Assembly: GCA_023251835.1 (NCBI GenBank)
Contig: JAHEXZ010000015.1
Location: 25,568-89,567 of the forward strand
DNA: 64,000 nt
Direction of reading: 5' to 3'
Source: Bacteroidota bacterium
GTDB lineage: Bacteria > Bacteroidota > Bacteroidia > 2-12-FULL-35-15
This document shows positions 18,106-60,760 of the stretch, one piece after another. Each line of letters opens with the position of its first letter. Position 1 is the stretch's first letter. The notes beneath the pieces were generated by a model. The model worked only from the letters and a program-made list of their open reading frames with translations, ran no database searches and had not been told where the DNA came from. The position numbers and the translations under genes are program-made.

Positions 18106-18114
18106 TAAAAAAAG

Positions 18115-39399: not shown

Positions 39400-40404
39400 C
39401 TATTCCAGGCATAAACATATTTTTTCTACTGCTGCTGCATCTCCCACACTAATCCGCAATGACTTATCCTGACCAAAAACTTTCAGGTTACAAACTATCA
39501 ATCCGTTAGTTGTAAATTTACTAAATAGTTCTTCTTTTTTATTTTCCGAATCAAAAAATACATACAAAAAATTTCCCTGTGGTGAAATTACATTTAACCC
39601 TGCCTGTTTTAATTTCTCATATAAAATATTTCGGTATTTAGTATTTTTCTTTATACATGATGAAATAAATCTTTTGTCTTTCAGTGATGCAAGTGCTGCA
39701 TCTTCTGAAAGCGAATTGAAGAAAAACGGAATACGGTTTTGTTTTAAGACGTTTGCCATATCTCCTCTCATTATTCCATAACCGATTCTTAAGCCGGCTA
39801 ATCCATATATTTTGGAAAATGTGCGAAGGATAATCAGGTTGGGATATTTTTTCTGAAGAGAAAATGAATCAGGAAAGGATTTATCAGTTACGTATTCACA
39901 ATAGGCTTCATCAATAACAACAATTATTTTCTCAGATATATTTTTCAATAATTGTTCAAGCTGTGAATGGGTAATGATTGTTCCTGTGGGATTATTGGGA
40001 TTGGCAATGAAAATAACTTTGGTTTTTTTAGTGATGAGTTGGAAAATATTTTCTACATCACAAATAAAATCTGTTTGTTTGGCAAAACTATATTTTCTCC
40101 GGTGAGCAGCAGCGAGTTGTTCGTAAGCAACAAAACTCCGCTCAAAAAGTATAATTTCTTCATCAGGCTCAACAAATGTCTGGATAATTCCATCAATTAA
40201 CCTCACTGAGCCTGCACCTACAACAATATCTGTTGCATCAACGTTAAATTTTTCTGCAAGCTTTTCTTCCAGGCGGACAGGCAGTGAAGGATACAGATGT
40301 ACATTTATTAAGCCTTTTTTAATTGTTTTCTGAACTTCTGGAGAACAGCCATGGCTATTTTCATTTGCGTTCAGACGTATTATTGGTTGTTTTTTATTCT
40401 TCAT
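39400..40404 (-). CDS. Class II PLP aminotransferase (HisC/aromatic aminotransferase-like)
   Basis: Contains LNANENSHG, ANPNNPTG, DEAYCEY and TFSKIYGLAGLRIGY (PLP Lys). I prefer the ATG at 40404 (MKNKKQPIIRLNANEN). The longer track ORF overlaps the upstream gene. Confidence 0.8.
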   Translation of the reverse strand: MKNKKQPIIRLNANENSHGCSPEVQKTIKKGLINVHLYPSLPVRLEEKLAEKFNVDATDIVVGAGSVRLIDGIIQTFVEPDEEIILFERSFVAYEQLAAAHRRKYSFAKQTDFICDVENIFQLITKKTKVIFIANPNNPTGTIITHSQLEQLLKNISEKIIVVIDEAYCEYVTDKSFPDSFSLQKKYPNLIILRTFSKIYGLAGLRIGYGIMRGDMANVLKQNRIPFFFNSLSEDAALASLKDKRFISSCIKKNTKYRNILYEKLKQAGLNVISPQGNFLYVFFDSENKKEELFSKFTTNGLIVCNLKVFGQDKSLRISVGDAAAVEKICLCLE

Positions 40405-41284
40405 TTGATAAAATATCTTCAAAAATTCCTTTGCTGATGTTATATAAAACTTCTTTCCTATACCAGGCAGTAGCACGTATATCTGAAATGGGAGAGGCAT
40501 AACCCACTACTTTCTCTGCAAACTCTTTCTTTTCATTTTCAGAAATTTCAAAAATGTTTTTTCCTGCGAGAAATTTGCAGGCGGAATCGGTGGAACGAAT
40601 AGTAGGTGCTGATGAGCCAATTGCTATTCCTGCATGAATAATTTTTCCTTTAATATCAGTTTGAATATGGTATGCCAGCGACACAACAGAACACTCCATT
40701 GATTTACGTGTGCCTATTTTAATGAATCTGGAAAAAATTCTTTTTTTATTTTTTTCATTTCCGCGAATAGAGATGCTGTAAAGCAATTCGCCTCGTTTAA
40801 GAGCTGTAGCTCTTACTCCTGTGTGGAAATCATGAATCGGAATTCTTCTTCTCCTTCCATTTTCATTAATAATCTCACAGTTCGCACCCAATGTCATTAA
40901 CGCACAGGCAATATCTCCGGAAGGTGAAGCTGTACAAAGATTTCCTCCCACAGTAGCTACCTGCCTTATCTGGGTTGATGCAAGATTTAGTGCTGCCTCA
41001 TGTAAAACAGGAAAATTTCTTTTTATTTCTTCGTTCATAACAATATTGTGTGCAGTAACTCTTGAGCCTATTGTTAAACCCTTGGATGTTTTCTTTATCC
41101 CTGTAAATACAGCATCTTTTACCTGTGTAATATTTATCACAGTCAAATTTTCCTCTGGCTTTTTTCTTAGCTCTAATAATAGGTCGGTGCAGCCGGCTCC
41201 AAAACGAAATTTTTTTCTTTTCAAATTTTTTACGACCGAAAGAAGTTCTTTAGTCGTTGTCGGGTTTATGATTTCAAAACTCAT
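40394..41284 (-). CDS. FAD-binding (CoxM/XdhB-type) subunit of the second XDH-family enzyme
   Basis: Contains FGAGCTDL and ATVGGNLCTASPSGD. It has no Cys-rich insertion. Confidence 0.85.
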   Translation of the reverse strand: MSFEIINPTTTKELLSVVKNLKRKKFRFGAGCTDLLLELRKKPEENLTVINITQVKDAVFTGIKKTSKGLTIGSRVTAHNIVMNEEIKRNFPVLHEAALNLASTQIRQVATVGGNLCTASPSGDIACALMTLGANCEIINENGRRRRIPIHDFHTGVRATALKRGELLYSISIRGNEKNKKRIFSRFIKIGTRKSMECSVVSLAYHIQTDIKGKIIHAGIAIGSSAPTIRSTDSACKFLAGKNIFEISENEKKEFAEKVVGYASPISDIRATAWYRKEVLYNISKGIFEDILSNEE

Positions 41285-41294: not shown

Positions 41295-43604
41295 TTAAAT
41301 ATTTTTATGAATTGCTTTCAATACTTTTTCAGGAGTAATTGGCAGCTCAATAATGTCAATATCAAGTGCATTACACACTGCATTTGCAATTGCAGCGGCA
41401 GTGGGAATCAATGGTGCTTCACCAACACCTTTAGCTCCGTAAGGGCCTTGCTTGTCGTTTGTTTCTATCGGAAAAAAATCTATTTCCGGAATATCCGAAG
41501 CAGTAAGCATTTTGTAGTTATGAAAATTCGGATTCAGAATTTTTCCATCTTTCATCAGTAGCTCTTCTGAAAGCGCATAACCCATTCCCTGCAAAATTCC
41601 TCCGTGAATTTGACCATCGAGTAAAAGCGGATTCAGCACTTTTCCCACATCCTGTGCCACCCACACATTTTTTACACTCACATTGCCAGTATAAGTGTCT
41701 ACTTCCACTTCTATTGCCTGCGAAGCAAAAGCATAGGTTCCCGAAACATTCCCTTTGTATTCCTTATTCTGGACCTGGCTGGATGGCTCATAAAAATAAG
41801 AAGCTATTGCCAGTTCGTTCGGATGGGAGAAATGCATTTCACGAACTACTTTGTCGAGGGCAATGCTGTTACCGGATATGCTGGATTTGATGAATCCATT
41901 TTCGTATTCAAATTCTTCATCACTGGTTTTGAGAAGTTCGTTTGCTTTTTTATTTAATTTCTCTTTCAGAATTTTTATTGCACCAAGCAATGAATTTCCG
42001 GCCACAAAGCTGGTACGTGAGGCATGCACTCCCACATCCCAGGGCTTTATATCGGTGTCGGTATTAATAACTTTAATTTTTTTCAAATCAATTCCAAGTT
42101 CTTCCGAAGCAATCATAGCAAGCACAGTTTCTGAACCCTGGCCAATTTCATTGGAACCGGTAATAATCGTACAATATCCGTACGGGTCAATTTTTAGTGT
42201 GGTTCCACAACCGTCAGAACGGTATATTTTTGCACCACCACCTACATGCAACATTGAAGCATAACCGATTCCGCTTACAAACCTCTTTTGAGTGCTTTTT
42301 TTTGATGAGTGTTTGCTCACTTCACTTTTTTGAGTTTTTAATTTTGATTTAGTTATTACTGTTTCCAAACACTCTTTGTGTCCGCAGGTTTCGTAGTGTA
42401 AACCTTGTCCGGTAGTTTCTCCTTTTTCATTTGCGTTCAGCAGACGGATTTCAGCTTTGTCCATACCAATTTCTTCGGCAAGTAAATCAATCATACGCTC
42501 CAAAGCAAAAGTAGCCTGTGGATTTCCGTATCCTCTGAATGAACCCGCAAAAACATTGTTGGTATAAACGGCCGTTGCGTCAAACATGCAGGCACCAACT
42601 TTATATAGCGATGAAAATGCCTGCATAATTACAAACGGAGTAGTTGCACCCCATGAAGTATAAGCTCCATTGTCTTTCACAATATTTATTTCCCGGAAAG
42701 TAAAATTTCCTTTTTTGTCAACTCCCGCAGTTAAATCAATTATCATTGGTTGGCGTGTGGGGGATGCAATAAATTCTTCCTCGCGTGAATAAATTATCTG
42801 AACCGGTCTGCCGGTTTTCATTGAGAGCAACGCACAAATTGGTTCAAATGGATACATATCTAATTTGCTTCCAAACCCCCCTCCAATCACAGGTTGAATG
42901 ATTCTGATGTCGGAAGGATTCATTTTGAGCGCGTGTGCCATGTCGCGCTGATACAAAAACGGAACCTGTGTTGAACTGTAGAGTAAAAGTTTACCATCTG
43001 TTTTATTATAGGATGCGGTGATATTGCTTGTACCCATACAAGCATGTGTCATTCGCGGAAGCGTGAATCTTCTTTTTACAATAGCTGCACTTTTCTTTTT
43101 TTCTTCTTCAAGATTACCGTGTTCATAATGAAATGTTTCCGCAATGTTTTTATTTTGAAATTTTCCTGAAATAAATTTATTAATCTGCGGAGCATCTTCT
43201 TTCAATGCTTCAAACGGCCCATATATTCCTTTTCGGATTTTATATTTTACCTTGATTAGCTTTAGCGCCTGCTGTGCTATTTCTTTTGTTTCGGCTGCTA
43301 TAGCGGCAATTTCATCACGTATACAGTTCACCTCACCTTTTTTCAAAATGGGATGATCGCGCTTATAGCTGATATTATTGGTATCTATATCATCTGCGGT
43401 GATTATGCAAACAACCCCTGGGATTTTTTTGGCTGCGGAAATATCAATAGTAAATTCTGCCGAAGGATGTTCTGTTCGAAGAATTGCACCGTACAACATA
43501 CCCGGCAAAACAATATCGTGACCGTACACGGCCTTTCCTGTAACACGGATGTGTGCATCGTGTTTTGGAGTGGGTTTGCCAATTATTTTCAATTCTTTAA
43601 ACAT
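41295..43604 (-). CDS. Molybdopterin-binding large subunit of the second XDH-family enzyme
   Basis: 769 aa. Contains VIGGGFGSK and GAKGVGEAPLIPTAAAIANAV. Confidence 0.88.
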   Translation of the reverse strand: MFKELKIIGKPTPKHDAHIRVTGKAVYGHDIVLPGMLYGAILRTEHPSAEFTIDISAAKKIPGVVCIITADDIDTNNISYKRDHPILKKGEVNCIRDEIAAIAAETKEIAQQALKLIKVKYKIRKGIYGPFEALKEDAPQINKFISGKFQNKNIAETFHYEHGNLEEEKKKSAAIVKRRFTLPRMTHACMGTSNITASYNKTDGKLLLYSSTQVPFLYQRDMAHALKMNPSDIRIIQPVIGGGFGSKLDMYPFEPICALLSMKTGRPVQIIYSREEEFIASPTRQPMIIDLTAGVDKKGNFTFREINIVKDNGAYTSWGATTPFVIMQAFSSLYKVGACMFDATAVYTNNVFAGSFRGYGNPQATFALERMIDLLAEEIGMDKAEIRLLNANEKGETTGQGLHYETCGHKECLETVITKSKLKTQKSEVSKHSSKKSTQKRFVSGIGYASMLHVGGGAKIYRSDGCGTTLKIDPYGYCTIITGSNEIGQGSETVLAMIASEELGIDLKKIKVINTDTDIKPWDVGVHASRTSFVAGNSLLGAIKILKEKLNKKANELLKTSDEEFEYENGFIKSSISGNSIALDKVVREMHFSHPNELAIASYFYEPSSQVQNKEYKGNVSGTYAFASQAIEVEVDTYTGNVSVKNVWVAQDVGKVLNPLLLDGQIHGGILQGMGYALSEELLMKDGKILNPNFHNYKMLTASDIPEIDFFPIETNDKQGPYGAKGVGEAPLIPTAAAIANAVCNALDIDIIELPITPEKVLKAIHKNI

Positions 43605-44306: not shown

Positions 44307-44317
44307 AATTTTTTGTA

Positions 44318-44512
44318 TTAGCAGTTATTAATTTTTTGGTTTATACAAATATCTCTATTATTGTATCTGCAAAAACGTGATGTACAGGGCTTCTGTTCCA
44401 CGGTTTCATCGGAAGTAAATTTTTCAGCATGAAGTTTTTGAAACGAAAAAAATACTGTTCCGACAATTGCTGCTGAACATATTTTCAGAAATTCTCTTCG
44501 TGTTCTGTCCAT
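44318..44512 (-). CDS. 64-aa Tat-signal mini-protein with C-terminal 4-Cys segment
   Basis: MDRTRREFLKICSAAIVG gives a perfect T-R-R-x-F-L-K Tat motif. Its ATG directly abuts the stop of the upstream FAD oxidoreductase gene. Confidence 0.6.
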   Translation of the reverse strand: MDRTRREFLKICSAAIVGTVFFSFQKLHAEKFTSDETVEQKPCTSRFCRYNNRDICINQKINNC

Positions 44513-45940
44513 CTATCTTGACTTTGAAAAATATTTTTTTGTTTCATTAGCGGCATTTATTCCTGTAACAATTGCTCCTTCCATACAAGGCATCTCTATC
44601 TCACTACGTATCCAGTCGCCAGCGAGAAAAAGGTTTCTGAAATGTGTTCTCGTTCTTGGTCTGAATTTTACTGTGCCTGGTTCGGTGAGCAGGTAACGTT
44701 CGTGATTTGCTTTGTTCCTGTTGAAGGATTCATGGATGATTCCAGCTTTTCTCGGGTCTTTTGCACCTGGAACTTTGAGAAACGCATTGAAAATTATTTC
44801 TTTTAGTTCATCATCCGTTTTATTTTCGAAAGATGTTTCCTGTCCTACCCATTCAAGAGCAGAACCAATTCCTGGATTATTTTTATACTCGTCCTTAATA
44901 GTTTTATAATCCGCAACACTTCCCATTGGTTCATCAAGTCCATTAATAGTGACAGTTCCGGTTGGCATCACGGATTCTTTTGTCCATACCTGGTAAGAAA
45001 GTGAAACTACGGTTCGCAGATTTTCTATGCTCTTAAACCCATTCCAGAAAAAAGAATCACCCCAGTTCAGTTCCCTAAAGCAATCAGGAGGAATTGCCAG
45101 GATAAGTGCATCTATATTATTTATCTCCTGAATAGAATCCTGTATAACAGGTACAACATCTTTCCACGGTATTGTTCCATATCCATGAATTTTAGCATCC
45201 GGATCACCGATTTTTATACCTGTTATCTTTTGTCCGTCATGGATAAGTTCTGTAAGTTTTTTTTTAATAAAAATTTTTCCTCCAAGTTTTTCAAAATAAT
45301 CTGTAAGCGGTTTAATAATGTTTTCACCATATGTTCCGTTTATGTAAAAATATTTACCCGTTCCAACCGCTTTTCTCACACCCATCAGGGTTAAATAGGT
45401 AGATATTTCATATGGCCAATTGAATGCGGCATCCTGTGAAAAACGAAACCATCTCATCTTTGTTATTTCTTTGTCCATGCCATGTTCAAGTGCCCAGGCA
45501 GTATAACATATATCATCATATTTTTCAATATCCATATCAAGATAAATTGTTTTCGCATTCTTTATCCCGAAATTAGTTATTTTCCTATAGGTGTTAAATG
45601 GGTAAGGTGGATTGGGAATTCGTAAATCAGGAGCAATGGAATGAACTTTTCCCGTGCTTTCTTCATAACATAAATTTATTCTTTTATTTGAAACCAGAGT
45701 CTTTTTTTCTTTCACTCCAGCTCGTTTCAACATTCTTCTCATATTGGTATACGGAGCAAACAGGCCATGCAAGCCATGGTCAATATTAAAACCTTCCGCA
45801 TCGCGCCATGAAGTCGCGCGACCACCCAGGTGATGCCCCATATTGTATAGCCTTACATCAGCATCTTTCATCTCTTCCAGAATTTTGATTCCGGCAGCAA
45901 TTCCGGCAAGCCCTCCTCCTATGATAACCACTTTTTTCAT
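44513..45940 (-). CDS. FAD-dependent oxidoreductase (amine oxidase / phytoene desaturase superfamily), no own signal peptide
   Basis: Contains KKVVIIGGGLAGIAAG and GGRATSWRD..GFNIDHGLH. The C-terminus has LAGDW. Confidence 0.7.
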   Translation of the reverse strand: MKKVVIIGGGLAGIAAGIKILEEMKDADVRLYNMGHHLGGRATSWRDAEGFNIDHGLHGLFAPYTNMRRMLKRAGVKEKKTLVSNKRINLCYEESTGKVHSIAPDLRIPNPPYPFNTYRKITNFGIKNAKTIYLDMDIEKYDDICYTAWALEHGMDKEITKMRWFRFSQDAAFNWPYEISTYLTLMGVRKAVGTGKYFYINGTYGENIIKPLTDYFEKLGGKIFIKKKLTELIHDGQKITGIKIGDPDAKIHGYGTIPWKDVVPVIQDSIQEINNIDALILAIPPDCFRELNWGDSFFWNGFKSIENLRTVVSLSYQVWTKESVMPTGTVTINGLDEPMGSVADYKTIKDEYKNNPGIGSALEWVGQETSFENKTDDELKEIIFNAFLKVPGAKDPRKAGIIHESFNRNKANHERYLLTEPGTVKFRPRTRTHFRNLFLAGDWIRSEIEMPCMEGAIVTGINAANETKKYFSKSR

Positions 45941-47079
45941 TCGGATTTCAATTTGAATTTATCGAAATAAAAACCTACCAATTCCTGATAACCCTTTCCA
46001 TTTGTACTGTTTTTCCCGGAAGATTTTTCATTTACTACCACTTTGCATGGACCTTCCCAGAAATAATTGTAAAAGAGAATAGGCATCTCGTGGTCGTCCC
46101 ATTGGGGAGAAATATGAAGCTCGTATCCCCATTCCGGAATATCCAGCGTCCATTCGACCGGATATTTAATATTTGTTCTCGGACTTTCCCATATTCGGTG
46201 AGATGATGCGTTAATGGTTTTATACACACTGGTTTTTCCATTCTTGTCAAGTTGTGTTACCGACTGAACAAGAATTTTTCCAGTTAAAATATTTTTAACA
46301 ATATACAGATTCAGCGCGTCACCATTGTCAAGTGTAATTCCCCACCAACACCAGCGTAGGTTTTTGTTGGGCCAGGGCTTTCCCCATTGATGGTCATACC
46401 ATACCACGCCTTTCAAATCATGAAAAGAATCATCCGCTTTGAGTTTTCCGATTGAACCTAATTGCGGGTAAGAATAATAGTAAACATCCTGCGAACGCTT
46501 TATTCCGATGAGTCCGGTACCATCAAGAAGCAGAGGTTTTGAAGAATCGGGAAGCGACATAAGAAGTGAAAGCACAAGTGAATCATTATTGATTACAAAT
46601 GAATAACTTCCTTTTTGTTTTTTCAAAATGCTGTTGTCGTAATTCAAATCAAGCGGTGCTCCCGGTTTTTCATTTGGGCCTTTTGGATACGTAAAAATAT
46701 TTTTCTTTCCTGCTATCGGAAGCGATAGAGGCGACAGTGATTTATCAAAAATATAATTGTAATAATTTTTTCCGGTATTCAGGTTGGTAATCTTGTATGT
46801 GAGGTATCTTTCTCCAAGACCACGGATAAAACTGGCATAAAACGACCAGGCGTATTTTGAAGAATCGGTTTCGTAAAGATACCCGTAGTAATACCACCAT
46901 TCCATAGATTTATAGGTATGAATTTCCTCTTCATCAACGGGAGAAAGAATTCGTTTTCCCTCACTGTTGTAAACTGGTTCTTTTTTATTCAGGAAGTAAG
47001 GATAACATGAAGTCAATAAAATCATAAGCAGGCTTATAGCCAGCAAAAATTGTAAATATATTTTTGAAAATGATTTCAT
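45937..47079 (-). CDS. AttH/CrtC-like (hydratase-fold, lipocalin-like) lipoprotein
   Basis: Has the lipobox LLTSC. MEWWYYYGYL and VVWYDHQWG are motifs typical of the CrtC/AttH family. It overlaps the downstream gene by 4 nt. Confidence 0.6.
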   Translation of the reverse strand: MKSFSKIYLQFLLAISLLMILLTSCYPYFLNKKEPVYNSEGKRILSPVDEEEIHTYKSMEWWYYYGYLYETDSSKYAWSFYASFIRGLGERYLTYKITNLNTGKNYYNYIFDKSLSPLSLPIAGKKNIFTYPKGPNEKPGAPLDLNYDNSILKKQKGSYSFVINNDSLVLSLLMSLPDSSKPLLLDGTGLIGIKRSQDVYYYSYPQLGSIGKLKADDSFHDLKGVVWYDHQWGKPWPNKNLRWCWWGITLDNGDALNLYIVKNILTGKILVQSVTQLDKNGKTSVYKTINASSHRIWESPRTNIKYPVEWTLDIPEWGYELHISPQWDDHEMPILFYNYFWEGPCKVVVNEKSSGKNSTNGKGYQELVGFYFDKFKLKSE

Positions 47080-47088: not shown

Positions 47089-47619
47089 TTACTCTCTCGA
47101 AATTTTTTCAACTGCGTCAATAATTTTTACGTAACCCGTGCATCTGCACAAATTTCCTTCCAGCCATTTTTTAATTTCATCTCTTGTGGGGATTTCGGAT
47201 TTCGCCTTTCCGGTAGTCTTATGAGAATTCTCGTACCGATTCATCAATCCCTTAATCGACATTGCCATTCCTGATGTACAGAATCCACATTGTACCGCCC
47301 CATTTTGAACAAGTGCATGCTGCACTTCATCTAATGAACCATCGCTTTTTGTCAATCCTTCAATGGTTGTGATTTCTTTTCCGTTTGCATTCACGGCTAA
47401 AAATAAACAGGAGTTTATTGGAGCGCCATTCATAAGCACTGTACAGGCACCACATTCACCTTCATTGCAGCCCGGTTTTGTTCCTTTGAGTTCAAAAACA
47501 TCGCGAATCACATCCAGCAATACGGCTGAAGGTTTTACTTCACAGGAAACTTTTTTTCCGTTGAGCACGAATGAGATTTTATGCAGCGACCCATTTTCCT
47601 TTTTTATTTTCTGTACCAT
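47089..47619 (-). CDS. [2Fe-2S] small subunit (CoxS/XdhC-iron-sulfur type) of an XDH-family enzyme
   Basis: Contains CNEGECGACTV, QCGFCTSGM and NLCRCTGY. Confidence 0.88.
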   Translation of the reverse strand: MVQKIKKENGSLHKISFVLNGKKVSCEVKPSAVLLDVIRDVFELKGTKPGCNEGECGACTVLMNGAPINSCLFLAVNANGKEITTIEGLTKSDGSLDEVQHALVQNGAVQCGFCTSGMAMSIKGLMNRYENSHKTTGKAKSEIPTRDEIKKWLEGNLCRCTGYVKIIDAVEKISRE

Positions 47620-47637: not shown

Positions 47638-48225
47638 TCATTTTGAATAATATTCCCTGCCCATCCTGAATGCTGACATAGTTTTTTCCCTGTGATAATC
47701 CATCACTGTATTCTGAATTGCTTTTTCAATTGTTTCCGCAGTGAACGGAAAATTCATCATCTTTGTGGCTCTTCCAAGAAGGAGAACGTTGTATAAAACG
47801 GAATCAACATTCTCAGGAATAGTTTTAACAAATACAACCTCTTTGCATTGTTCTTTCAGGTAATCTGCAAAAGAATTTACGTCAGGGTATTTAGCAGTTT
47901 CGGAATTTACCGAATAAGGTGCAATTTGATAGTTACAGAAAATTATACTGCTATTTTTATGCAGGTATGGGATACAACGTTGTGTTTCGAGTGGTTCCAG
48001 CCCAATAAGAAAATCAACATTGGCTTTTCCGATAAATCCAGTATTGTATTTCCCTAACCCAATGCCGGCAGTTACAATTCCTCCGCGCTGTGAAAGTCCA
48101 TGAATTTCGCTCACACTAACAGGAATATCTGAAATAACTGCCGCCTCTGCCAGAATGTTTGTTAGATATACTATTCCCTGCCCACCTACACCAGCCACAA
48201 GAATCTTATTTATTTTGTTTTTCAT
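47638..48225 (-). CDS. iorB: Indolepyruvate:ferredoxin oxidoreductase beta subunit
   Basis: 195 aa. Contains ILVAGVGGQGIV and GLSQRGG. Confidence 0.8.
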   Translation of the reverse strand: MKNKINKILVAGVGGQGIVYLTNILAEAAVISDIPVSVSEIHGLSQRGGIVTAGIGLGKYNTGFIGKANVDFLIGLEPLETQRCIPYLHKNSSIIFCNYQIAPYSVNSETAKYPDVNSFADYLKEQCKEVVFVKTIPENVDSVLYNVLLLGRATKMMNFPFTAETIEKAIQNTVMDYHREKTMSAFRMGREYYSK

Positions 48226-48296: not shown

Positions 48297-51200
48297 TTAT
48301 CGTTCCACTATTTCCCATCGTATCGCATTATTCGGACAAACATCTATACATAAACCGCACAATGTACAGCGGCTATAATCTATTTTTATTTTTCCGTTCA
48401 CTTTTACCATTGCAGGACAACCGAAATTATCTATGCAGTGATTACATTTCATACAGGATTGGTATAGATTAAAACGTTCAAGAGCTCTTCCTAAATTCTG
48501 CCCTTCTGAGAGAACATTAACACGTGTCTCTCCCCACTTTGTCCGAAAGGACTCGTTCGGAGGGGAGAGCTGGAGAGGGGTGTTATTCAATTTCTCTAAT
48601 GCTTTTTCTCCTTCATAATCATGCTGATAATTCTCCAAAAGTTTTCGTACTCCAACTGCGGCTTTTTTCCCGGATGCAATTGCACCAATTACGCTCATAT
48701 TGTTTCCGGAAGAAATATCTCCGGCAACAAAAATGTTTTTGTATCCTGAAAATCCTTTATCATTTTTAATTCTTCCCTGCATATCTATTTTTTCTTTTCC
48801 TATCTTTTCAAAAACAGGTTGCTCGCTTTGTTGTCCAATAGCAGTGATTATATAATTACATTCTAATTTTTTCAGAAATTCCTTTTTGACGAATGAGTGA
48901 AGGTTGATTTCTATTTTTTTCGAGGAAGAAACAGAACACTCAGTTACAAAACTATCATGAATAAATTCAATATCTTCTGCAATAGCATGATTGACTTCTT
49001 CTGCAAAAGCGGGCATTGTTTCTGCACTTTCAACGCAGGATACTATTACTTTATTATGAGGGTTTAATTTTTTTGCAGAACGTGCGGCATCAATAGCACT
49101 ATTACCTCCACCAATTATAAGAATAACAACACTTTCTATATCATCCCTGAAAGGGAGGGCCTTGGTGTTAAATGCTTTTAAAAATGAGAGTGCATCAAGT
49201 CTTTTTTCAAAGGGAATATTTTTTTCAATAACATCCAAAGTCTTTGACTTGCCCATGCCGATAGCAAGAATAACAGAATCAAACTCATCCGAAAGTTTTT
49301 CCAATGTAAAATCTTTACCGAGTGATTTATTAAAATGAAATTTCACACCTATTTCTTTCAGCTGCATCGCTTCAAAATCAAAGCCCGTTTTGTCCATCCT
49401 GAAATCCGGAATGGCAAATGTTACCATACCTCCTGCTTTGTTTTCTTTTTCAAAAATTTCTATACTGTATCCTGCCTGTGCTAAGTCATAAGCTGCGCTT
49501 AACCCGGCAGGGCCTGCACCAATAATGGCAACTGATTTATTCAGACTTGCCGAATTTTTTGCTCTTGATTTAGGTAAAGTGAAATCGTGAAAATTTTCAT
49601 CAATGGACGAAACAAATTTTTTCAATGCTTTAATAGGCACTGCTTCTTTCTGTAATGAAAATAATTCACATGGACGATGACATATATCTCCACAGGTTCT
49701 CGCGAAAAGCATTTTATCTCTCACAATTTCCACTGCCGATTTGTAATCTCCTTCAAGAATTGAATTGAAAAATCCATGGTTACAAATATTCGCAGGGCAT
49801 AATTGTTCTTCCCCTGCAATGGAAACTTCAGCAAACAATTTTGCGCGGGCGCGTGATAAATTATTTTTTGGAGCATAACCGCGGGAGCAGGCAAGCGAAA
49901 CATCTTCATGATTAGCGCAGGTATTGCAGAGATTTTCATCCACCACAATTTTCATTTTTTTATTTGTTTTTTCCTTGAAATCAGGAAGAAAAATGCAGGG
50001 TGCTTTTGAAATAATTACTGAAACACCCTTGTGCGACATAGCTTTATTTAATTTTACAAATCCATCACGAATATCAAATGGATTGAAGGTCTCTACCACT
50101 TCTATTCCCATACCTTTCAGCAATGGTGCTATTTCTATTTCGTGGTATTTTGGTAAATGTTGTGAAGCTCCGGGATGTGACTGATGTCCTGTCATACCTA
50201 TCGTACGGTTGTCAAAAATCACCACAAGAATATTGGCGCGCGTATAAACGGCATTCACCAGCGAGGTAAGTCCCGAGTGAAAAAATGTTCCGTCACCAAG
50301 CAATGCCACAACTTTTTTCCCATTCTGTGAATGATGAAATGCTTCATATAACCCTTGCGCCATGGAAATGCTCATGCCCATGTGATTGATGGTATCAATC
50401 ATTTTCAGGGGAGGCAGCGCTCCAAGACCGAAACAGCCTATGTCTCCGCACATCAGCAGTTCGCCCTGCTCTCTCGGTATTGCAAGTTTCAGTAAATAAA
50501 AAGTTGCACGGTGCGGACAACCGGAGCATAGAACAGGCGGGCGGGGAGGAAGATTTTGTATATAATTTTCAGAGTTATCTAGAATACGATTTTCTTCCTT
50601 GTTGATAGAAATATTCAGGAAATCTTCTAACACTTTTGTGATAATGTCAATAGAAAATTCTCCTGTTGGAATAAGCACTGAAAATCCTTTACCTAAGATT
50701 TCAGATTTATTTTTATTTTTTTGTGCAAGCGTACGAACAGCATTTTCAATAAAGGGGTCTAATTCTTCCAGCACCAAAATTTTTTTTAAATTTTTTTCCA
50801 GAAAATTCAACACTTCTTGTTCAGGAAAAGGATGAATCATTCCGAGTGAAAGAATATTCACTTTATCTTCAATAGTATGGTGATGTAAAATTTCATTCAG
50901 GTATGCTGTAGAAACTCCGCTTGTAATTATTCCGAATTGGGTTAAATTTCCCCTCTCCAAAGGAGAGTTTTTAAGGGTGAGATGTTTACTGTTCTCAGAA
51001 AGTAAATTTAGAACAGCTTTACTTTTCAGTTTATCAAGCAAACGCGTATGTGCTGTTGCTGTTCTTGCCGGAATATTTATATGTTCGGGAATACGGTCAA
51101 ACTTTGCTGAGTGATTTTCATAATTTATTTTTCCGTAGTTGATAACACTCCTCGAATGAGAAACGCGTGTTGTAGTGCGAACAATAACTGGTAATTTTAG

Positions 51201-51746
51201 TTCTGCTGAAAGTAGAAATGCCTGTTTTGTCATTTCTTTTGCTTCATCAGGTGTAGCCGGATTAAAAACCGGTACCGAAGCCATAGGCCCCCAGTATCGG
51301 GAATCCTGCTCATTTGAGCTGGAGTGACAGCCGGGGTCATCACAAATCACTATTACCAAAGAACCCATAATTGTTTGGTAAGTAATACTCATCAGAGCAT
51401 CACTGGCAACATTCATTCCTACATTTTTCATTACGCACATAGTGCTTTTATGTCCGATGGAAAATGCAATAGCTTTTTCAAGAGCTATTTTTTCATTAAT
51501 ACTGTATTCAAAATAAATTTTGCGAGCAGTTTGTTCTGCGTATTTTTCTTCGTGTTCTGATTTATTCTGAAAATCGTTGACATATTTGAATACTTCCGAA
51601 ATTTCTGTAGATGGAGTTCCTGGATAAGCAAACACACCATTCACCCCTGCTTCAATTGCCCCGCGAGCAATTGCTACGTTTCCCATCACACAACGTTTTT
51701 GAGGGTGACTATGCGATGTAAGTATTTCAATGGTTTGACGAAGCAT
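48297..51746 (-). CDS. iorA: Indolepyruvate oxidoreductase alpha subunit carrying an internal GltD-like NAD(P)H flavoprotein module
   Basis: 1149 aa. Residues 1-600 are the IorA TPP core (GDIGC, GDGTFFHSG). Residues 640-1040 are GltD-like (CPANICNHGFF...CGDICHRPCE, VAIIGAGPAGLSAA, IIGGGNSAIDAA, FVAGDI). Residues 1098-1140 are a 2x[4Fe-4S] ferredoxin (CMKCNHCIDNFGCP, CTLCGLCIDVCP). Confidence 0.85.
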   Translation of the reverse strand: MLRQTIEILTSHSHPQKRCVMGNVAIARGAIEAGVNGVFAYPGTPSTEISEVFKYVNDFQNKSEHEEKYAEQTARKIYFEYSINEKIALEKAIAFSIGHKSTMCVMKNVGMNVASDALMSITYQTIMGSLVIVICDDPGCHSSSNEQDSRYWGPMASVPVFNPATPDEAKEMTKQAFLLSAELKLPVIVRTTTRVSHSRSVINYGKINYENHSAKFDRIPEHINIPARTATAHTRLLDKLKSKAVLNLLSENSKHLTLKNSPLERGNLTQFGIITSGVSTAYLNEILHHHTIEDKVNILSLGMIHPFPEQEVLNFLEKNLKKILVLEELDPFIENAVRTLAQKNKNKSEILGKGFSVLIPTGEFSIDIITKVLEDFLNISINKEENRILDNSENYIQNLPPRPPVLCSGCPHRATFYLLKLAIPREQGELLMCGDIGCFGLGALPPLKMIDTINHMGMSISMAQGLYEAFHHSQNGKKVVALLGDGTFFHSGLTSLVNAVYTRANILVVIFDNRTIGMTGHQSHPGASQHLPKYHEIEIAPLLKGMGIEVVETFNPFDIRDGFVKLNKAMSHKGVSVIISKAPCIFLPDFKEKTNKKMKIVVDENLCNTCANHEDVSLACSRGYAPKNNLSRARAKLFAEVSIAGEEQLCPANICNHGFFNSILEGDYKSAVEIVRDKMLFARTCGDICHRPCELFSLQKEAVPIKALKKFVSSIDENFHDFTLPKSRAKNSASLNKSVAIIGAGPAGLSAAYDLAQAGYSIEIFEKENKAGGMVTFAIPDFRMDKTGFDFEAMQLKEIGVKFHFNKSLGKDFTLEKLSDEFDSVILAIGMGKSKTLDVIEKNIPFEKRLDALSFLKAFNTKALPFRDDIESVVILIIGGGNSAIDAARSAKKLNPHNKVIVSCVESAETMPAFAEEVNHAIAEDIEFIHDSFVTECSVSSSKKIEINLHSFVKKEFLKKLECNYIITAIGQQSEQPVFEKIGKEKIDMQGRIKNDKGFSGYKNIFVAGDISSGNNMSVIGAIASGKKAAVGVRKLLENYQHDYEGEKALEKLNNTPLQLSPPNESFRTKWGETRVNVLSEGQNLGRALERFNLYQSCMKCNHCIDNFGCPAMVKVNGKIKIDYSRCTLCGLCIDVCPNNAIRWEIVER
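48464..49946 (-). other. Inserted GltD-like module within iorA (about residues 601-1095)
   Basis: Lies between the end of the TPP domain and the C-terminal ferredoxin domain that normally follows it directly. Confidence 0.65.
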
Positions 51747-51828: not shown

Positions 51829-52800
51829 TCAGTATAAATTAGTAAAATTTGGTACTTTGTTACCCAAAAAAACAGTTTCCTGTTGTATAATTTTCAATAT
51901 TGTTGACAGAATTTTATCCCCACCAGAATTTCCATCCACCCAGTGAATTTTAAATCCGTTTTTTTCCATCCTACGAAACCATGTCATTTGTCTCTTGGCG
52001 AATTGATGAATGGCTGTATTTAATAAGGAAAACATTTCATTGTATTTTAATTCTCCCTGTAGAAACATAGTCAGAAATTTATATTCTAAACCGTAATTTT
52101 TGAGTTGATTTGATGAAATACCTTTACCAAGTAATTCTTTCACTTCATCAATCATTCCTTGTTCAAATCTTCTCTTTAATCGCTGCGTAATCTTTTGCCT
52201 GAGAAGATTTCTTTCCATATGAATACCGATAACTCTACTGTTTATCTTAGGAAAATCATTTTTTAAATTGGGGTTGTTGATATTATAATGTTCAATCTCA
52301 ATTGCCCTGAGAACTCTGTTGATATCATTTGAATCAGTTGCATTATGTAGTTTGCGCATTCCTGATAGTATTATTACAAGTTCTTCCAGACTTTTCCCTT
52401 GCAGATGCTCCCTTAATTGAGAATTTACAGGAACATCAACTAACTTGTATCCTTTTAAAACTGCTTCAAGATACAGTCCTGTCCCTCCACACAGAATCGG
52501 TACATTACCACTTAAAGTGATTTTCTGATAAGCCGACAAAAATTCATTTTGATATTGATAAACACTAAATTCTGTTCCTGGGTCAGCGATGTCAATCAAG
52601 TGAACAGGAATTTTTTTGTTGTGAACTATATAATCATCAAAATCTTTTCCGGTACCAATATTCATTTCTCTGTAAACCTGGCGGGAATCTGCGCTAATGA
52701 TTTCACCATTTATCCGGTATGCCAGACCGGTCGCAATTTTTGTTTTCCCGGAAGCCGTGGGGCCAAGAATGGTTATCATATTGGTAGTTGGTGAAATCAT
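51829..52800 (-). CDS. miaA: tRNA dimethylallyltransferase
   Basis: Contains ILGPTASGKT, ISADSRQVYREMNIGTGK, HLIDI and CGGTGLYLEA. Confidence 0.85.
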   Translation of the reverse strand: MISPTTNMITILGPTASGKTKIATGLAYRINGEIISADSRQVYREMNIGTGKDFDDYIVHNKKIPVHLIDIADPGTEFSVYQYQNEFLSAYQKITLSGNVPILCGGTGLYLEAVLKGYKLVDVPVNSQLREHLQGKSLEELVIILSGMRKLHNATDSNDINRVLRAIEIEHYNINNPNLKNDFPKINSRVIGIHMERNLLRQKITQRLKRRFEQGMIDEVKELLGKGISSNQLKNYGLEYKFLTMFLQGELKYNEMFSLLNTAIHQFAKRQMTWFRRMEKNGFKIHWVDGNSGGDKILSTILKIIQQETVFLGNKVPNFTNLY

Positions 52801-52804: not shown

Positions 52805-54100
52805 TTAAATTATTTTTTTTTCTTTCAGAATTACCATTTCTTCTTCGGTAACACCACATGATTTATATACTGCATCGTTATGTTCACCTAAACGAGGAGC
52901 TCCTTCTACCTGAAAATTATTTTTTATCAGAAAATCGGTATGGTGTGAAGGCGGAGAAAGTTTTGCTTCTTTTCCATCAGGAAGTTTTGTTTTTACCATT
53001 GCATTGCATACATATTCAAGAGCGGCAACTTCTTTGATGGAATTTACCGGGGCAACGGAGAGATTCAGCGAGATGCATAAATCATAAAATTCTTTGGTAG
53101 TATAATTTTTTGTGAGCGTACCGATTTCTTTATAGATATTTTCTTTGTCTTTCATTCGGCCTTCGTTTGTTTTACGCATTGGTTTTGCCAATGACTCAAA
53201 TCTTTCCAACGAAGTGAATTTTGCCCACTGGGAATCATTTCCTATTGCGAGATAAATAAAACCGTCTTTTGTAGGATAGGCATTGCACGGAATAAAACTG
53301 CGATGTTCGTTTCCACTTCGTTGAAAAAGTTCGTCATCGCTTTTTACAAAATTCAATTGTGGAAGAGCGGTAATCAGCCAGCTTGCTGCACATTGCGCCA
53401 TTGATATGTGAATTTCTTTGCCAGGCTCTTCTAAATCTTCTACATAGGGAAAGACTTTGTTGTCCGGTACTTTTTTGAGTTCTGAAATTTCCTCTCTATC
53501 CTTTGGAGGCGGGGTGGGGGAGAGGTATTTTTGTTCCAGCATTGCAAGTAACACCTGTGTAAAAGCTTCTTCACCCGCTTTCAAATCAATGATGGGTATT
53601 CCACATGGAACAGGTTTTCCGCTGGGTTCGCCCGTGAGAAAGGTGTAGCCAAGTAATGCCTGCAATGCGGGGTCGTAGCCAGCGCGTTCAGGATGTGCAG
53701 GACCCATCGCTGAAATACCGCACCATATTAAGTTGGGATTTGCTTCGCGCAATGTTTCAAAATCAATTCCCAGTTGTTTGTATCTTTTCGGAAGCGTATT
53801 GCACATAAATACATCAACTCTTAGTTCCCGGATAATTTTTTTCAGCAGTTCCTGCCCTTCTTTTTTCTTAAGATTAATTGTGATAGCTTCCTTCCCAACA
53901 TTTGGGGCGATGTAGTAAGAATGTAAATCATGAAATCCTAAGTTTGCACCGATATAGCGGTTTGGGTCTCCCGCATTTTCATCTCCTTCGGCAGGCGATT
54001 CAATACGAATCACTCTCCATCCCAACTGCACAAAGCGTTGAGTGGCATAAGGCAAAGCCAGAGCCTGTTCAAGTGATAATATTGTTTTCTTTTCCAGCAT
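52805..54100 (-). CDS. Family III (CaiB/BaiF) CoA-transferase with an acidic insertion
   Basis: Contains LPYATQRFVQLGWRVIRIESP..GDPNRY. 431 aa. The start lies 2 nt after the mutase stop. Confidence 0.75.
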   Translation of the reverse strand: MLEKKTILSLEQALALPYATQRFVQLGWRVIRIESPAEGDENAGDPNRYIGANLGFHDLHSYYIAPNVGKEAITINLKKKEGQELLKKIIRELRVDVFMCNTLPKRYKQLGIDFETLREANPNLIWCGISAMGPAHPERAGYDPALQALLGYTFLTGEPSGKPVPCGIPIIDLKAGEEAFTQVLLAMLEQKYLSPTPPPKDREEISELKKVPDNKVFPYVEDLEEPGKEIHISMAQCAASWLITALPQLNFVKSDDELFQRSGNEHRSFIPCNAYPTKDGFIYLAIGNDSQWAKFTSLERFESLAKPMRKTNEGRMKDKENIYKEIGTLTKNYTTKEFYDLCISLNLSVAPVNSIKEVAALEYVCNAMVKTKLPDGKEAKLSPPSHHTDFLIKNNFQVEGAPRLGEHNDAVYKSCGVTEEEMVILKEKKII

Positions 54101-55768: not shown

Positions 55769-56152
55769 TTAAATTCTCCCTTTTAAATCCTTAATATAAC
55801 CTACCACTGTTTCAATGGTTGTTCCTGTGGCAAATGCTTTTTTTGCTCCTGATTTTTCAAGAGAAGAAACATCTTCGGCTGGAATATTTCCTCCCACTAT
55901 CCAGGGAATTTGCAAACTACTTTTTTTCATTTCCTCATTCATCTTTTCGCAAAGAATCTGGTGAGTTCCTGAAAGAATAGATAACCCAATCACAGCCGGA
56001 TTTTCTTTTTTCGCGCGTGCTACAATATCTTCAATAGATTTTCTTAAACCTGTATAAACCACTTCATGTCCTGCTTCTTTCAATGCGTGCGCCAGCACTT
56101 TTACACCTACATCGTGGCCATCCAGTCCGGGTTTTGCTAAAAGTATTTTCAT
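55769..56152 (-). CDS. Cobalamin-binding small subunit of the mutase
   Basis: MKILLAKPGLDGHDVG carries the DxHxxG B12 motif. I prefer the ATG at 56152 over the track start at 56218. Confidence 0.8.
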   Translation of the reverse strand: MKILLAKPGLDGHDVGVKVLAHALKEAGHEVVYTGLRKSIEDIVARAKKENPAVIGLSILSGTHQILCEKMNEEMKKSSLQIPWIVGGNIPAEDVSSLEKSGAKKAFATGTTIETVVGYIKDLKGRI

Positions 56153-56243
56153 TCTTGTTGTGATTACGAATGTTATAATATACTGAACGAATGGGTTTAC
56201 TGGTTTTTGCAAACTCATTCAGTTGAAGTATAAATTACAGAGA

Positions 56244-59558: not shown

Positions 59559-60689
59559 TTATAATCCGAGTTCCTTTGCAATATTTATTTTAAGAATTTC
59601 TGAAGTGCCTCCTCCAATAAGTGTAAAGCGTGAATCGCGGAGGTATCTTTCAATGTTGTATTCTGCTGCATAGCCGTAAGAAGCAAGTATACGACTGGCT
59701 TCATCGCAAATATGCACTGCACATTCTGAAGCATAAAGTTTTGCAATCATTGCTTCTTTTTGCCGGGGAAGATTTTTGTCGCTCAATGTTGCGGCATATA
59801 AAACATAATGCTTTGCGGTTTCTAATTGAACAGCCATGTCAGCAAACTTCATTTGTATTGCCTGAAATTTTCCAATCGGTTTTCCGAACTGTACTCTGGT
59901 TTTGGCATATTCAATCGTATCTTCGTAAGCTGCAGTAGCAACACCAATGGCAAGCGCGGCAGTCATAACCCTTATTTCTGCAAGAATTTCACGCAAACAT
60001 TTTGTTCCTTCACCAATCCCTCCGAGCAAATAATTTTTCGGAAGTTCCACATCTATAAAACCAACTTCACTGGTAACCGAAGCGCGAACACCCATTTTAT
60101 CAATACTTTTTCCAACCATTACACCTTTAATATTGGATGGAACAAAAAAGATAGAGAGTTGCTCGTGGTTATCTGTTCGAGCAAGTACGGTGAAGAAATC
60201 TGCAACAGGAGCTGATGTAACCCAGGTTTTTTGTCCATTAAGAATAAATCCGCTATCGGTAACTTTTGCTGTGGTTTTGATGGACATCAGGTCACTTCCT
60301 GCATTTGGCTCGGTCATACATATACCGCCAATCTTGTTTCCTTTTAATGCTTCTGAAAAGTATTTCTCTTTGATTTCATTATCTCCGAAACGATACAGAA
60401 AATAAGTTCCCATTAGCGATTGCATGGTACAGGCGGCAGCAAGTGAAAGCGAACCTTTTGCTAATTCAATAACGGCAAGCGAATATGAAACAATATCCAA
60501 CCCACTTCCTCCGGCACTTTCAGGGTAACGCATTCCGAAAAATCCAAGTTCGCCAACTTGTTTGAAAAGTTCTTTTGGGAATTTTTTTTCTTCATCCAAT
60601 GTTGCGGCAACAGGTTTCACTTTCTTCACGGAAAATTCACGGAAGGTTTGTTGAATTTGTTTTTGTACGTCTGTTAACTCAAAATCCAT
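59559..60689 (-). CDS. Acyl-CoA dehydrogenase
   Basis: Contains MTEPNAGSD and GQKTWVTS. The C-terminus has GGGTSEI. 376 aa. Confidence 0.88.
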   Translation of the reverse strand: MDFELTDVQKQIQQTFREFSVKKVKPVAATLDEEKKFPKELFKQVGELGFFGMRYPESAGGSGLDIVSYSLAVIELAKGSLSLAAACTMQSLMGTYFLYRFGDNEIKEKYFSEALKGNKIGGICMTEPNAGSDLMSIKTTAKVTDSGFILNGQKTWVTSAPVADFFTVLARTDNHEQLSIFFVPSNIKGVMVGKSIDKMGVRASVTSEVGFIDVELPKNYLLGGIGEGTKCLREILAEIRVMTAALAIGVATAAYEDTIEYAKTRVQFGKPIGKFQAIQMKFADMAVQLETAKHYVLYAATLSDKNLPRQKEAMIAKLYASECAVHICDEASRILASYGYAAEYNIERYLRDSRFTLIGGGTSEILKINIAKELGL

Positions 60690-60760
60690 TTTTCTTTTTT
60701 ACAGCTGCGATACTAAAGCACTACGTTATCTTTATGGTTTTATGGTTTCGCGATAAACAA

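Follow-up and report, generated by a model that had tools for sequence, protein, structure and literature searches.

The DNA analysed here, called the window below, is a stretch of 64,000 nucleotides from contig JAHEXZ010000015.1 of a Bacteroidota bacterium. At 48297..51746 (-), it encodes an alpha subunit of indolepyruvate:ferredoxin oxidoreductase (IOR), IorA, in a fused form of 1149 residues, in which a thiamine pyrophosphate (TPP) core is followed by a flavoprotein module of the NfnB/GltD kind and, at the C-terminus, by a ferredoxin domain of the IorA type. The assignment is based on the single open reading frame (ORF), on domain scans and on homologs. We are somewhat inclined to see in this protein the alpha subunit of an indolepyruvate (arylpyruvate):NAD+ oxidoreductase that contains its own ferredoxin:NAD+ reductase and would feed indoleacetyl-CoA into a catabolic route resembling that of the iaa operon. 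A wiring of arylpyruvate oxidation to NAD(P)+ would be the simplest explanation of the sequence.

Domain composition and cofactor sites

The gene forms one frame of 1149 codons with zero internal stops, and a scan for promoters and terminators around it gave no signal over background. The canonical IorA proteins used for comparison have 579-608 residues, which bears out the excess of size reported in the first-pass annotation, a reading of this DNA from its letters. With Pfam, the fused IorA was matched by TPP_enzyme_C (PF02775) at residues 435-578, Fer4_20 at 647-715, Pyr_redox_2 at 738-1026 and Fer4 at 1096-1143; POR_N was also found, weakly, so that all five domains looked for were recovered. 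Among the NCBIfam models, none of which reaches its own cutoff on this protein, IOR_alpha (TIGR03336) matched residues 17-612 over model positions 2-557 of 595 with 592.1 bits, and models of the GltD/NfnB type matched at about 624-1040. It was also possible to confirm in the translation the motifs CPANICNHGFF, CGDICHRPCE, VAIIGAGPAGLSAA and IIGGGNSAIDAA and the C-terminal dicluster.

Of 5.8 billion proteins searched, the 120 best matches included 117 of 1090-1220 residues that align with the whole query at 54-81% identity. The conservation given below was read from a MAFFT alignment of these 117 full-length members. The IorA TPP core covers residues 1-597 (49956..51746 (-)), as delimited by the TIGR03336 match and by the Cys and TPP residues common to four canonical IorAs; the assignment of residues 1-600 to such a core in the first-pass annotation agrees with this and with the position of TPP_enzyme_C. 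The TPP motif G484-D485-G486...N513 (GD[GS]...N) aligns with the four canonical IorAs and is invariant. Four cysteines, C407, C410, C438 and C584, are likewise common to the canonical proteins and present in 117 of the 117 members; from what is known of pyruvate:ferredoxin oxidoreductase (PFOR) we take them to hold the core [4Fe-4S] cluster of 2-oxoacid:ferredoxin oxidoreductases (OFORs), called cluster A here.

The Fe-S helical domain of the flavoprotein module covers residues 600-720 (49587..49949 (-)) and was located by Fer4_20, by alignments to StnC and NfnB and by its conservation. Its residues C607, C610, C620, C650, C655, C685, C689, C693 and E694 are conserved in all 117 members, and in alignments to StnC (8oh5_C), 9bov_A and Thermotoga maritima NfnB (4ylf_B) the eight cysteines between 607 and 693 and E694 fit the NfnB ligand pattern, including its Cys-Glu pair. 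The full mapping of C1-C7 onto NfnB leans in part on the N-terminal NfnB sequence, which lies outside the 4ylf_B alignment. The spacing of these cysteines is non-canonical, with an insert of 29 residues between the third and the fourth Cys, ahead of C650-P, and with an extra invariant cysteine, C655. At position 623, a Cys is found in 63 of the 117 members and a Gly in the window protein. The GltD-like module that the first-pass annotation had placed at 640-1040 was thus recovered by Fer4_20, by Pyr_redox_2 and by its fold; its start must be moved to about residue 600, where C607 supplies a ligand.

The FAD and NAD(P) Rossmann domains follow at residues 736-1040 (48627..49541 (-)) and were assigned by Pyr_redox_2, by alignments to structures in the PDB, by motif statistics, by the confidence of the predicted structure and by Foldseek. 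The FAD motif GAGPAG at 743-748 (G743-x-G745-x-x-G748) and the second dinucleotide motif GGGNSAID at 879-886 (G879-G880-G881-N-S-A-x-D886) are invariant, and the MPA motif is essentially so. A poorly conserved linker, residues 1041-1092 (48471..48626 (-)), leads to the 2x[4Fe-4S] ferredoxin domain of the IorA type at residues 1093-1149 (48300..48470 (-)), where a match to IOR_alpha, the signature described below and the invariant cysteines coincide. All eight cysteines of this domain, C1098, C1101, C1104 and C1110-P-A in the first motif and C1127, C1130, C1133 and C1137-P in the second, are invariant, and the dicluster ferredoxin predicted for this end of the protein is present, as the Fer4 match also indicates. 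The 20 invariant cysteines of the fused IorA correspond to the ligands of five [4Fe-4S] clusters; judged by these residues, the protein has sites for five [4Fe-4S] clusters, TPP, FAD and a nucleotide.

The AlphaFold2 model of the fused IorA had a mean predicted local distance difference test score (pLDDT) of 79.3, with 85-94 in the flavoprotein module. The least conserved stretch of the protein, 1051-1100 (23% identity), coincides with the low-pLDDT region of the model and, with it, marks the linker. When the model was compared with the PDB by Foldseek, the top ranks were taken by NfnABC, NfnI-L, Xfn, StnC, GltD, DPD and T. maritima NfnB, with E-values of 1e-24 to 1e-27, and the target-normalised TM was 0.72-0.76 for the stand-alone subunits 5jca_L, 5vj7_A, 4ylf_B and 2vdc_G. 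At the level of sequence, the module matched the structures of NfnB, NfnI-L, StnC, GltD and DPD with E-values of 1e-24 to 1e-47. In the predicted structure, the fold of the middle module is NfnB/GltD-like.

Origin of the C-terminal ferredoxin domain

The ferredoxin domain does not directly follow the TPP domain but starts about 490 residues further downstream. The first-pass annotation had explained this by an insertion, with the C-terminal ferredoxin as the displaced domain of IorA itself, and we consider this origin probable. It is favoured, short of proof, by the family score and by the cysteine signature of the domain. When the last 90 residues were scanned in isolation, the best family was IOR_alpha, at positions 547-595, with 47.3 bits, the next families reached 39.6 and 35.6, and PRK12771 was outside the top 25. 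Canonical IorA ferredoxin domains follow the pattern C-x2-C-x2-C-x4/5-C-P-A ... C-x2-C-x2-C-x3-C-P, which the query matches exactly (C-x2-C-x2-C-x5-C-P-A). For the wider family, residues 600-1149 were searched with HMMER against 1.84 billion representatives; 1268 matches were below 1e-30, and the best 150 were examined. Among these, the signature C-x2-C-x2-C-x4-6-C-P-A was confined to proteins linked to IorA or fragments of them; in unlinked proteins there are either two motifs of the classical CxxCxxCxxxCP kind or no such motif, and the tails of PRK12771-type proteins have two.

The C-terminal ferredoxin could instead belong to the flavoprotein, because PRK12771 spans residues 647-1143 in a single stretch (model positions 51-561 of 566 in NCBIfam) and GltD-like proteins with a dicluster at the C-terminus also occur on their own, as in P0185 and P0254. 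The fusion would then have been made end to end, between an IorA core without ferredoxin and a pre-existing PRK12771-type protein that brought its own C-terminal dicluster. In its favour, an IorA of 533 residues that has no ferredoxin domain occurs in Parabacteroides. Pairwise scores of the C-terminal domain discriminate weakly, since they overlap between two of three canonical IorAs and the unlinked proteins. The junction can be read in two ways: the segment 'KIVVDENLC607NTC610...C620' can be aligned to the first Cys motif in the ferredoxin domain of canonical IorA, and it also provides the first three ligands of the NfnB type. To the scan of the isolated domain and to the confinement of the CPA-type signature, both of which speak against an end-to-end origin, must be added that the fused core stands no nearer to the Bacteroidales IorA that lacks a ferredoxin domain (30-34% identity) than to that of Firmicutes (35-37%), and that the apparent split form in L058 is probably a frameshift. 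Taken together, an end-to-end fusion seems possible and clearly less probable than an insertion. It would have a consequence for the electron path: cluster A could feed the N-terminal clusters of the module directly, and the C-terminal dicluster would be a side branch to an external partner. The cofactor set is identical under both origins.

The Parabacteroides homolog, at 1222-2823 of locus L053 (Parabacteroides distasonis), ends right behind the TPP domain and is annotated 'thiamine pyrophosphate-dependent enzyme'.

Electron path, nucleotide acceptor and known relatives

The electron path that we infer for an enzyme with its own, displaced ferredoxin domain is the following. The TPP core, together with IorB, would decarboxylate indolepyruvate to indoleacetyl-CoA, and the two electrons would leave TPP singly through cluster A (C407/C410/C438/C584). 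They would next cross the tethered ferredoxin domain with its two clusters and then the cluster pair in the Fe-S domain of the NfnB/GltD-like module on their way to FAD. In GltD and NfnB the corresponding N-terminal pair links the flavin with an Fe-S partner, a part that the enzyme's own ferredoxin domain would play in the fused IorA. FAD would collect both electrons and pass a hydride to NAD+, as predicted from E906, which takes the place of the Arg pair for NADPH. Free ferredoxin would be unnecessary, and the flexible linker of about 50 residues may let the ferredoxin domain dock back on the core.

Nfn-like electron bifurcation, which the first-pass annotation had admitted, is unlikely because the conserved gene cluster has no NfnA-like partner: an NfnA-type protein (FAD + [2Fe-2S]) was not found in that cluster in the 50 loci of the genome scan described below, nor in L055-L059. 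The NfnB-like FAD would in that case be a bifurcating or confurcating flavin, which would combine the low-potential electrons of IOR with those of a higher-potential donor to form NADH, or in reverse split the oxidation of NADH between two acceptors; the candidate partners are the adjacent molybdenum (Mo)-hydroxylase or the IaaF-type dehydrogenase. It is true that the nearest solved relatives are the bifurcating subunits NfnB, NfnI-L, StnC and NfnABC, that the NfnB-type ligand set is invariant, including the Glu beside C693, and that two separate dicluster units flank the flavoprotein; the mechanism by which IaaF is re-oxidised is stated to be unknown (PMC8360864). However, the same module works without bifurcation in GltD and DPD, a bifurcating electron-transferring flavoprotein or similar gene is not part of the conserved cluster, and the fusion also occurs with IorB as its only neighbour (L059). 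Considering that the potential of 2-oxoacid/acyl-CoA + CO2 couples is about -500 mV and that of NAD+/NADH -320 mV, the oxidation of the 2-oxoacid by NAD+ is already exergonic and bifurcation is not needed. Should the flavin be confurcating after all, which we judge unlikely, the enzyme would stand for a new class of 2-oxoacid oxidoreductases in which electrons are confurcated at a flavin.

As to the acceptor, the alignment showed that NfnB, StnC and 9bov carry Y-R-R-T..M-P-A behind the second Rossmann strand. At the YRR position the window protein has C904-V905-E906, and C-[IVL]-E is found in 115 of the 117 members; YRR is kept by P0117 and P0119 only, the two most divergent. In Rossmann domains an acidic residue at this place is the mark of NAD specificity, and the 2'-phosphate of NADP is bound by a pair of Arg residues. 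Since YRR is replaced by C-[IVL]-E, the clade of the window protein is predicted to use NAD+ and not NADP+. The more distant fusions are mixed, with YRR in P0138, P0161 and P0261 and an acidic residue in P0124, P0183, P0244 and P0248, which suggests that nucleotide specificity has changed in the course of the fused IorA family.

The absence of the canonical NADPH-binding Arg pair from the window clade would also agree with a module that hands the electrons of IOR on to a different acceptor (a disulfide, polysulfide, quinone or O2) or that mainly protects or regulates the enzyme, and the flavoprotein family does reduce diverse acceptors, SudA and DsrL-type proteins among them (PMC10134865 for the diversity of the family). 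We find this quite improbable: GGGNSAID and MPA are essentially invariant, an acidic residue behind strand beta-2 is the classical solution for binding NAD and not a loss of the site, and the presence of YRR in two members and in several distant fusions indicates a nucleotide site under selection.

The direction of the reaction was also considered. OFORs are reversible in principle, GltD normally moves electrons from NADPH into its Fe-S clusters, and an aminotransferase is part of the cluster, so that NAD(P)H might drive the carboxylation of arylacetyl-CoA in a reductive arylpyruvate synthase for the biosynthesis of aromatic amino acids. NADH, at -320 mV, cannot drive a couple of about -500 mV without bifurcation or other energy input, and the neighbouring genes (acyl-CoA dehydrogenase, thiolase, hydratase, lactamase, Mo-hydroxylase) are catabolic, which makes this direction very unlikely.

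Returning to an NAD+-reducing IorA, we compared it with the systems already known. IorAB (TIGR03336/TIGR03334) is the enzyme of Pyrococcus furiosus described by Mai and Adams in 1994, as cited in PMC5109826. The fused protein shares with it the TPP core, the cluster A cysteines, the TPP motif, the C-terminal dicluster and a separate, adjacent IorB; it differs by the 490 or so extra residues (NfnB/GltD-like module and linker) between the core and the ferredoxin domain, by a score under the IOR_alpha cutoff and by a predicted acceptor, NAD+, other than free ferredoxin. By its core features it is an IorA, despite the sub-cutoff score. KGOR, which is said to have been described by Ebenau-Jehle, Boll and Fuchs in 2003, is reportedly a multi-subunit enzyme of the KOR class that acts on 2-oxoglutarate with NADP+. 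PMC10134865 counts the KGOR-alpha subunit of this enzyme, the 2-oxoglutarate:NADP+ oxidoreductase of Azoarcus evansii, among the members of the GltD family. Both enzymes would thus join a 2-oxoacid oxidoreductase to a flavoprotein of the GltD/NfnB family with a pyridine nucleotide as acceptor, but in the fused IorA the flavoprotein is covalently embedded and NAD+ is predicted. A third system is the CoA-benzoylating phenylglyoxylate:NAD+ oxidoreductase PadEFGHI (Hirsch et al. 1998, as cited in PMC5109826). It resembles the predicted enzyme in the oxidation of an aromatic 2-oxoacid by an OFOR coupled to NAD+ through an FAD component, within the anaerobic catabolism of aromatic amino acids, and differs in having five separate subunits, another substrate and no fusion. 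The first-pass annotation had named it as a loose precedent; a functional likeness is expected, and the KGOR of A. evansii, with its subunit of the GltD family, is the nearer one.

The union of an OFOR and a flavoprotein that reduces NAD(P) in a single polypeptide is reported from eukaryotes: the PNO of Euglena and Cryptosporidium, attributed to Rotte et al. in 2001, is said to consist of PFOR with a C-terminal FMN/FAD module of the cytochrome-P450-reductase type, fused end to end. The protein described here is, in contrast, bacterial, and its module is of the NfnB/GltD type and lies upstream of the ferredoxin domain of the OFOR. With NfnB, NfnI-L, StnC, GltD and DPD (4ylf_B, 5jca_L, 8oh5_C, 2vdc_G, 1h7x) the module has in common the Fer4_20 domain with two [4Fe-4S] clusters and the FAD and NAD(P) Rossmann domains, and it departs from them in the lack of an NfnA or GltB partner, the 29-residue insert, the extra C655 and C-[IVL]-E in place of YRR. 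Without NfnA and the YRR motif, the fused IorA is not an Nfn. What would be new with respect to the NAD(P)+-dependent precedents is an OFOR of the IOR class, an NfnB/GltD module inside the alpha subunit and upstream of its ferredoxin domain, and the predicted use of NAD+. The fused IorA is real, conserved, unannotated and apparently uncharacterised, yet conceptually anticipated by KGOR, PadEFGHI and PNO. No description of it was found in the literature covered, which lacks most subscription journals, so that this is absence of evidence only.

Distribution and gene neighbourhood

The full architecture is found in at least 117 independent clusters at 90% identity, from NCBI, ENA, JGI and Logan assemblies, which belong to metagenome-assembled genomes (MAGs) of Bacteroidota and to one Ignavibacteria genome. 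The genome scan gave 50 loci, nearly all in Bacteroidota MAGs and one in an Ignavibacteria genome; the Bacteroidota carriers were Flavobacteriales, Crocinitomicaceae, Vicingaceae, Saprospiraceae, Chitinophagales and Cytophagales. Among the best 150 representatives of the HMMER search there were about 18 further clusters at 50% identity, of 1050-1180 residues, with IorA N-termini and modules 31-38% identical; these distant fusions, some of them proteins of Deltaproteobacteria MAGs, include P0130, P0137, P0138, P0140, P0143, P0148, P0153, P0158, P0161, P0174, P0183, P0209, P0244, P0248 and P0261. P0138 bears the database title 'indolepyruvate ferredoxin oxidoreductase subunit alpha [Deltaproteobacteria bacterium]', and the names given to the fusion in public annotations are 'FAD-dependent oxidoreductase', 'TPP-dependent enzyme' and 'IOR alpha'. 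From its sequence relatives, the fused IorA is an old and recurrent class of IOR that stands in public databases under generic labels.

The fusion is split into two ORFs in the MAG loci L058 (8382-11821), L002 (5998-9360) and L044 (5935-9416). Joining the two frames of L058 in a GC-rich run, that is, by a frameshift of 1 nt, restores the usual spacing of the junction, and a three-gene split form in this locus was rejected on account of its frames and of this restored spacing; the breaks in L002 and L044 look like assembly frameshifts, not true split genes. P0134, P0146, P0187 and P0196 were also rejected as split forms, being fragments that start inside the TPP domain. Among the relatives examined, the search for an IorA core and a flavoprotein encoded by separate genes thus yielded no established case. 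The chance that two genes were merged by a sequencing or assembly error, the alternative raised in the first-pass annotation, is negligible in spite of these three split frames, and is refuted by the intact window ORF and by full-length fusions that occur independently and broadly.

Some observations on related proteins and loci may be added. P0157 (1384 residues), a distant relative encoded on a 26.7-kb contig from ENA, looks like a fusion of three parts, in which the N-terminus of an IorA and the flavoprotein module are followed by a C-terminus resembling IorB. On L059, a Deltaproteobacteria contig, a protein of 1128 residues at 15278-18664 (-) combines NIR_SIR (sulfite/nitrite reductase) domains with Fer4_20, Pyr_redox_2 and Fer4; by its domain matches it is the same kind of module joined to a different redox enzyme. 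L004 and L005, both from one MAG (CAYHCF01), have a cluster with equal gene lengths and spacing and with equal percent identities when compared with the window, which probably reflects a duplication in the assembly or strain variants.

IorB, the beta subunit with its POR domain, is encoded separately at 47638..48225 (-), as the first-pass annotation had noted, and was identified by the PF01558 and IOR_beta (TIGR03334) models; it lies directly downstream of the fusion in all related loci that extend far enough. Behind it, in a conserved position, is the 2x[2Fe-2S] small subunit of a Mo-hydroxylase of the xanthine dehydrogenase (XDH) family (47089..47619 (-); Fer2_2/Fer2 and XdhC-type models). 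The large, Mo cofactor-binding subunit (41295..43604 (-); MoCoBD_1/2) and the FAD or medium subunit (40394..41284 (-); FAD_binding_5 and CO_deh_flav_C) are also conserved in the cluster; for the large subunit, the best NCBIfam models were 4-hydroxybenzoyl-CoA reductase alpha and XdhA, both under cutoff. An aminotransferase of the HisC family (39400..40500 (-); TIGR01141, 297.6 bits) forms the end of the cluster in about 35 loci, and its translation probably begins at the Met near 40404.

On the other side of the fusion, a family III CoA-transferase (52805..54100 (-); CoA_transf_3-type models), with a putative IaaL-like role, lies directly upstream in nearly all loci. A conserved B12-dependent acyl-CoA mutase, for which an IaaGH-like role is proposed, follows with its large subunit at 54103-55749 and its B12 subunit at 55769-56218 (both (-); TIGR00641 and TIGR00640). 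Then come a protein of 693 residues with an enoyl-CoA hydratase/FadJ-like C-terminal part (56244-58325 (-)), matched only at residues 414-677 approximately, a thiolase (58347-59546 (-)), supported by blastp conservation and by Pfam Thiolase_N/C on the L057 ortholog, and an acyl-CoA dehydrogenase of the IaaF type (59559..60689 (-)), in which the C-terminal '...LIGGGTSEI' replaces YEG. A Rid-family protein (60761-61162 (-)) and a B subunit of the hydantoinase/oxoprolinase type (61188-62915 (-); NCBIfam caprolactamase beta, under cutoff) are both found in L057 too, and the corresponding A subunit (62896-63996 (-); caprolactamase alpha, under cutoff) is cut by the end of the window.

In the 50 loci the conserved order is [acyl-CoA dehydrogenase]-thiolase-hydratase-like protein-B12 subunit-mutase-family III CoA-transferase-fusion-IorB-Mo-hydroxylase small/large/FAD-HisC-family aminotransferase, and the core of the cluster is conserved in about 45 of the 50 and in L055-L057. 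L057, a Crocinitomicaceae contig of 1.9 Mb, adds the hydantoinase B, Rid and acyl-CoA dehydrogenase genes upstream, and so does the window at 59559-63996. Two interruptions are seen in the window. Between the small and large Mo-hydroxylase subunits, at 43617-47079 (-), there are three genes, for a CrtC-like lipocalin, an amine-oxidase/HpnE-like flavoprotein and a protein of 229 residues, which are absent from nearly all related loci, the CrtC-like gene being found only in L007. Between the CoA-transferase and the fusion, at 51829-52800 (-), there is a tRNA isopentenyltransferase (MiaA-like, by blastp among the loci), an arrangement limited to the window, L039, L047 and L049; in most loci the CoA-transferase adjoins the fusion.

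The substitution of GGG for YEG is specific to the IaaF (benzylmalonyl-CoA dehydrogenase) subclass, whose members all occur in indoleacetate-catabolic clusters, and the family III CoA-transferase IaaL and the B12 mutase IaaGH act before IaaF (Schuhle et al., PMC8360864). The acyl-CoA dehydrogenases of the window, L057 and L042 end in '...RFTLIGGGTSEILK', with the GGG motif, and the termini of Aromatoleum IaaF deduced from published primers (MDFDLTD/IAKEVSS) resemble those of the window enzyme (MDFELTD/IAKELGL). The mutase of the window retains the Tyr and Arg of the methylmalonyl-CoA mutase (MCM) type; presumably these residues fit a dicarboxyl-CoA substrate and speak against an isobutyryl-CoA mutase. 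A valine route through isobutyryl-CoA mutase and beta-oxidation was considered and rejected on the grounds of these two residues and of the IaaF GGG motif, and because it leaves the lactamase and the Mo-hydroxylase without a role.

The genes from 39400 to 63996 (-) suggest a single iaa-like catabolic cluster and an O2-independent route for tryptophan in Bacteroidota. The neighbouring aminotransferase would convert tryptophan to indolepyruvate, from which the fused IOR with IorB would yield indoleacetyl-CoA. The Mo-hydroxylase would then form 2-oxoindoleacetyl-CoA, and the hydantoinase-type A and B subunits would act on it as an ATP-dependent 2-oxoindoleacetyl-CoA lactamase; CoA-transferase, B12 mutase, the decarboxylating IaaF-type dehydrogenase and beta-oxidation would complete the way to 2-aminobenzoyl-CoA. 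The iaa operon serves the anaerobic degradation of indoleacetate in Aromatoleum (PMC8360864; PMC9613470). The cluster shares with it, at the level of families, a GGG-bearing IaaF-type dehydrogenase, a B12 mutase, a family III CoA-transferase, an XDH-family Mo enzyme and a hydantoinase-type lactamase, but the entry appears to differ, since an AMP-forming CoA ligase of the IaaB type was not found among the window ORFs scanned and the aminotransferase and the fused IOR would take its place. The host differs as well, being Bacteroidota where the iaa hosts are Betaproteobacteria, sulfate reducers and archaea; in the literature examined, an iaa pathway in Bacteroidota was not reported.

Several points weigh against the function proposed for the fused IorA. 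Its score of 592.1 bits is under the TIGR03336 equivalog cutoff of 650.9, and its model has a predicted TM score (pTM) of only 0.62, with a low-confidence linker (pLDDT <50 at 1059-1080). The choice of NAD+ over NADP+ follows from one sequence rule, the substrate is assigned from gene context, and the likeness to the Aromatoleum Iaa proteins is one of families, of the GGG motif and of terminal peptides deduced from primers. On L059, the fused IorA (P0138) has IorB behind it and zero iaa-like neighbours; with this architecture present in the absence of iaa-like genes, the fused family is not tied to indolepyruvate. Finally, the window encodes an ordinary PFOR of 1175 residues at 5907-9434 (+), with POR_N, POR, EKR, Fer4 and TPP_C domains, so that ferredoxin-dependent 2-oxoacid metabolism exists in the organism.

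Elsewhere in the window there is a second Mo-hydroxylase, at 836-4662 (+), made of a fused Fer2 and MoCoBD protein (938 residues) and an FAD subunit, and two large proteins with C-terminal sorting domains (Por_Secre_tail) of the type IX secretion system are encoded at 10527-12203 (-) and 32545-35967 (-), which fits the origin of the window from Bacteroidota.

Because annotation pipelines label the fusion 'FAD-dependent oxidoreductase' or 'TPP-dependent enzyme', its function is invisible in metagenome surveys. The cluster resembles a full O2-independent route that starts from tryptophan, passes through indolepyruvate and indoleacetyl-CoA and joins the iaa pathway; such a route may be relevant to the turnover of auxin and indole in sediments, groundwater and wastewater. 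If the proposed function holds, the fused IorA would achieve in one bacterial polypeptide what the NAD(P)+-dependent OFORs do with several subunits, in parallel to PNO in eukaryotes, and it would be a compact engineering part for NADH-coupled 2-oxoacid/acyl-CoA chemistry. Many Bacteroidota, with the carriers of relatives in one Ignavibacteria genome and in Deltaproteobacteria MAGs, would then oxidise arylpyruvates directly with NAD+, and the low-potential electrons would reach respiration as NADH instead of the ferredoxin pool, which would change models of their redox balance and energy yield.

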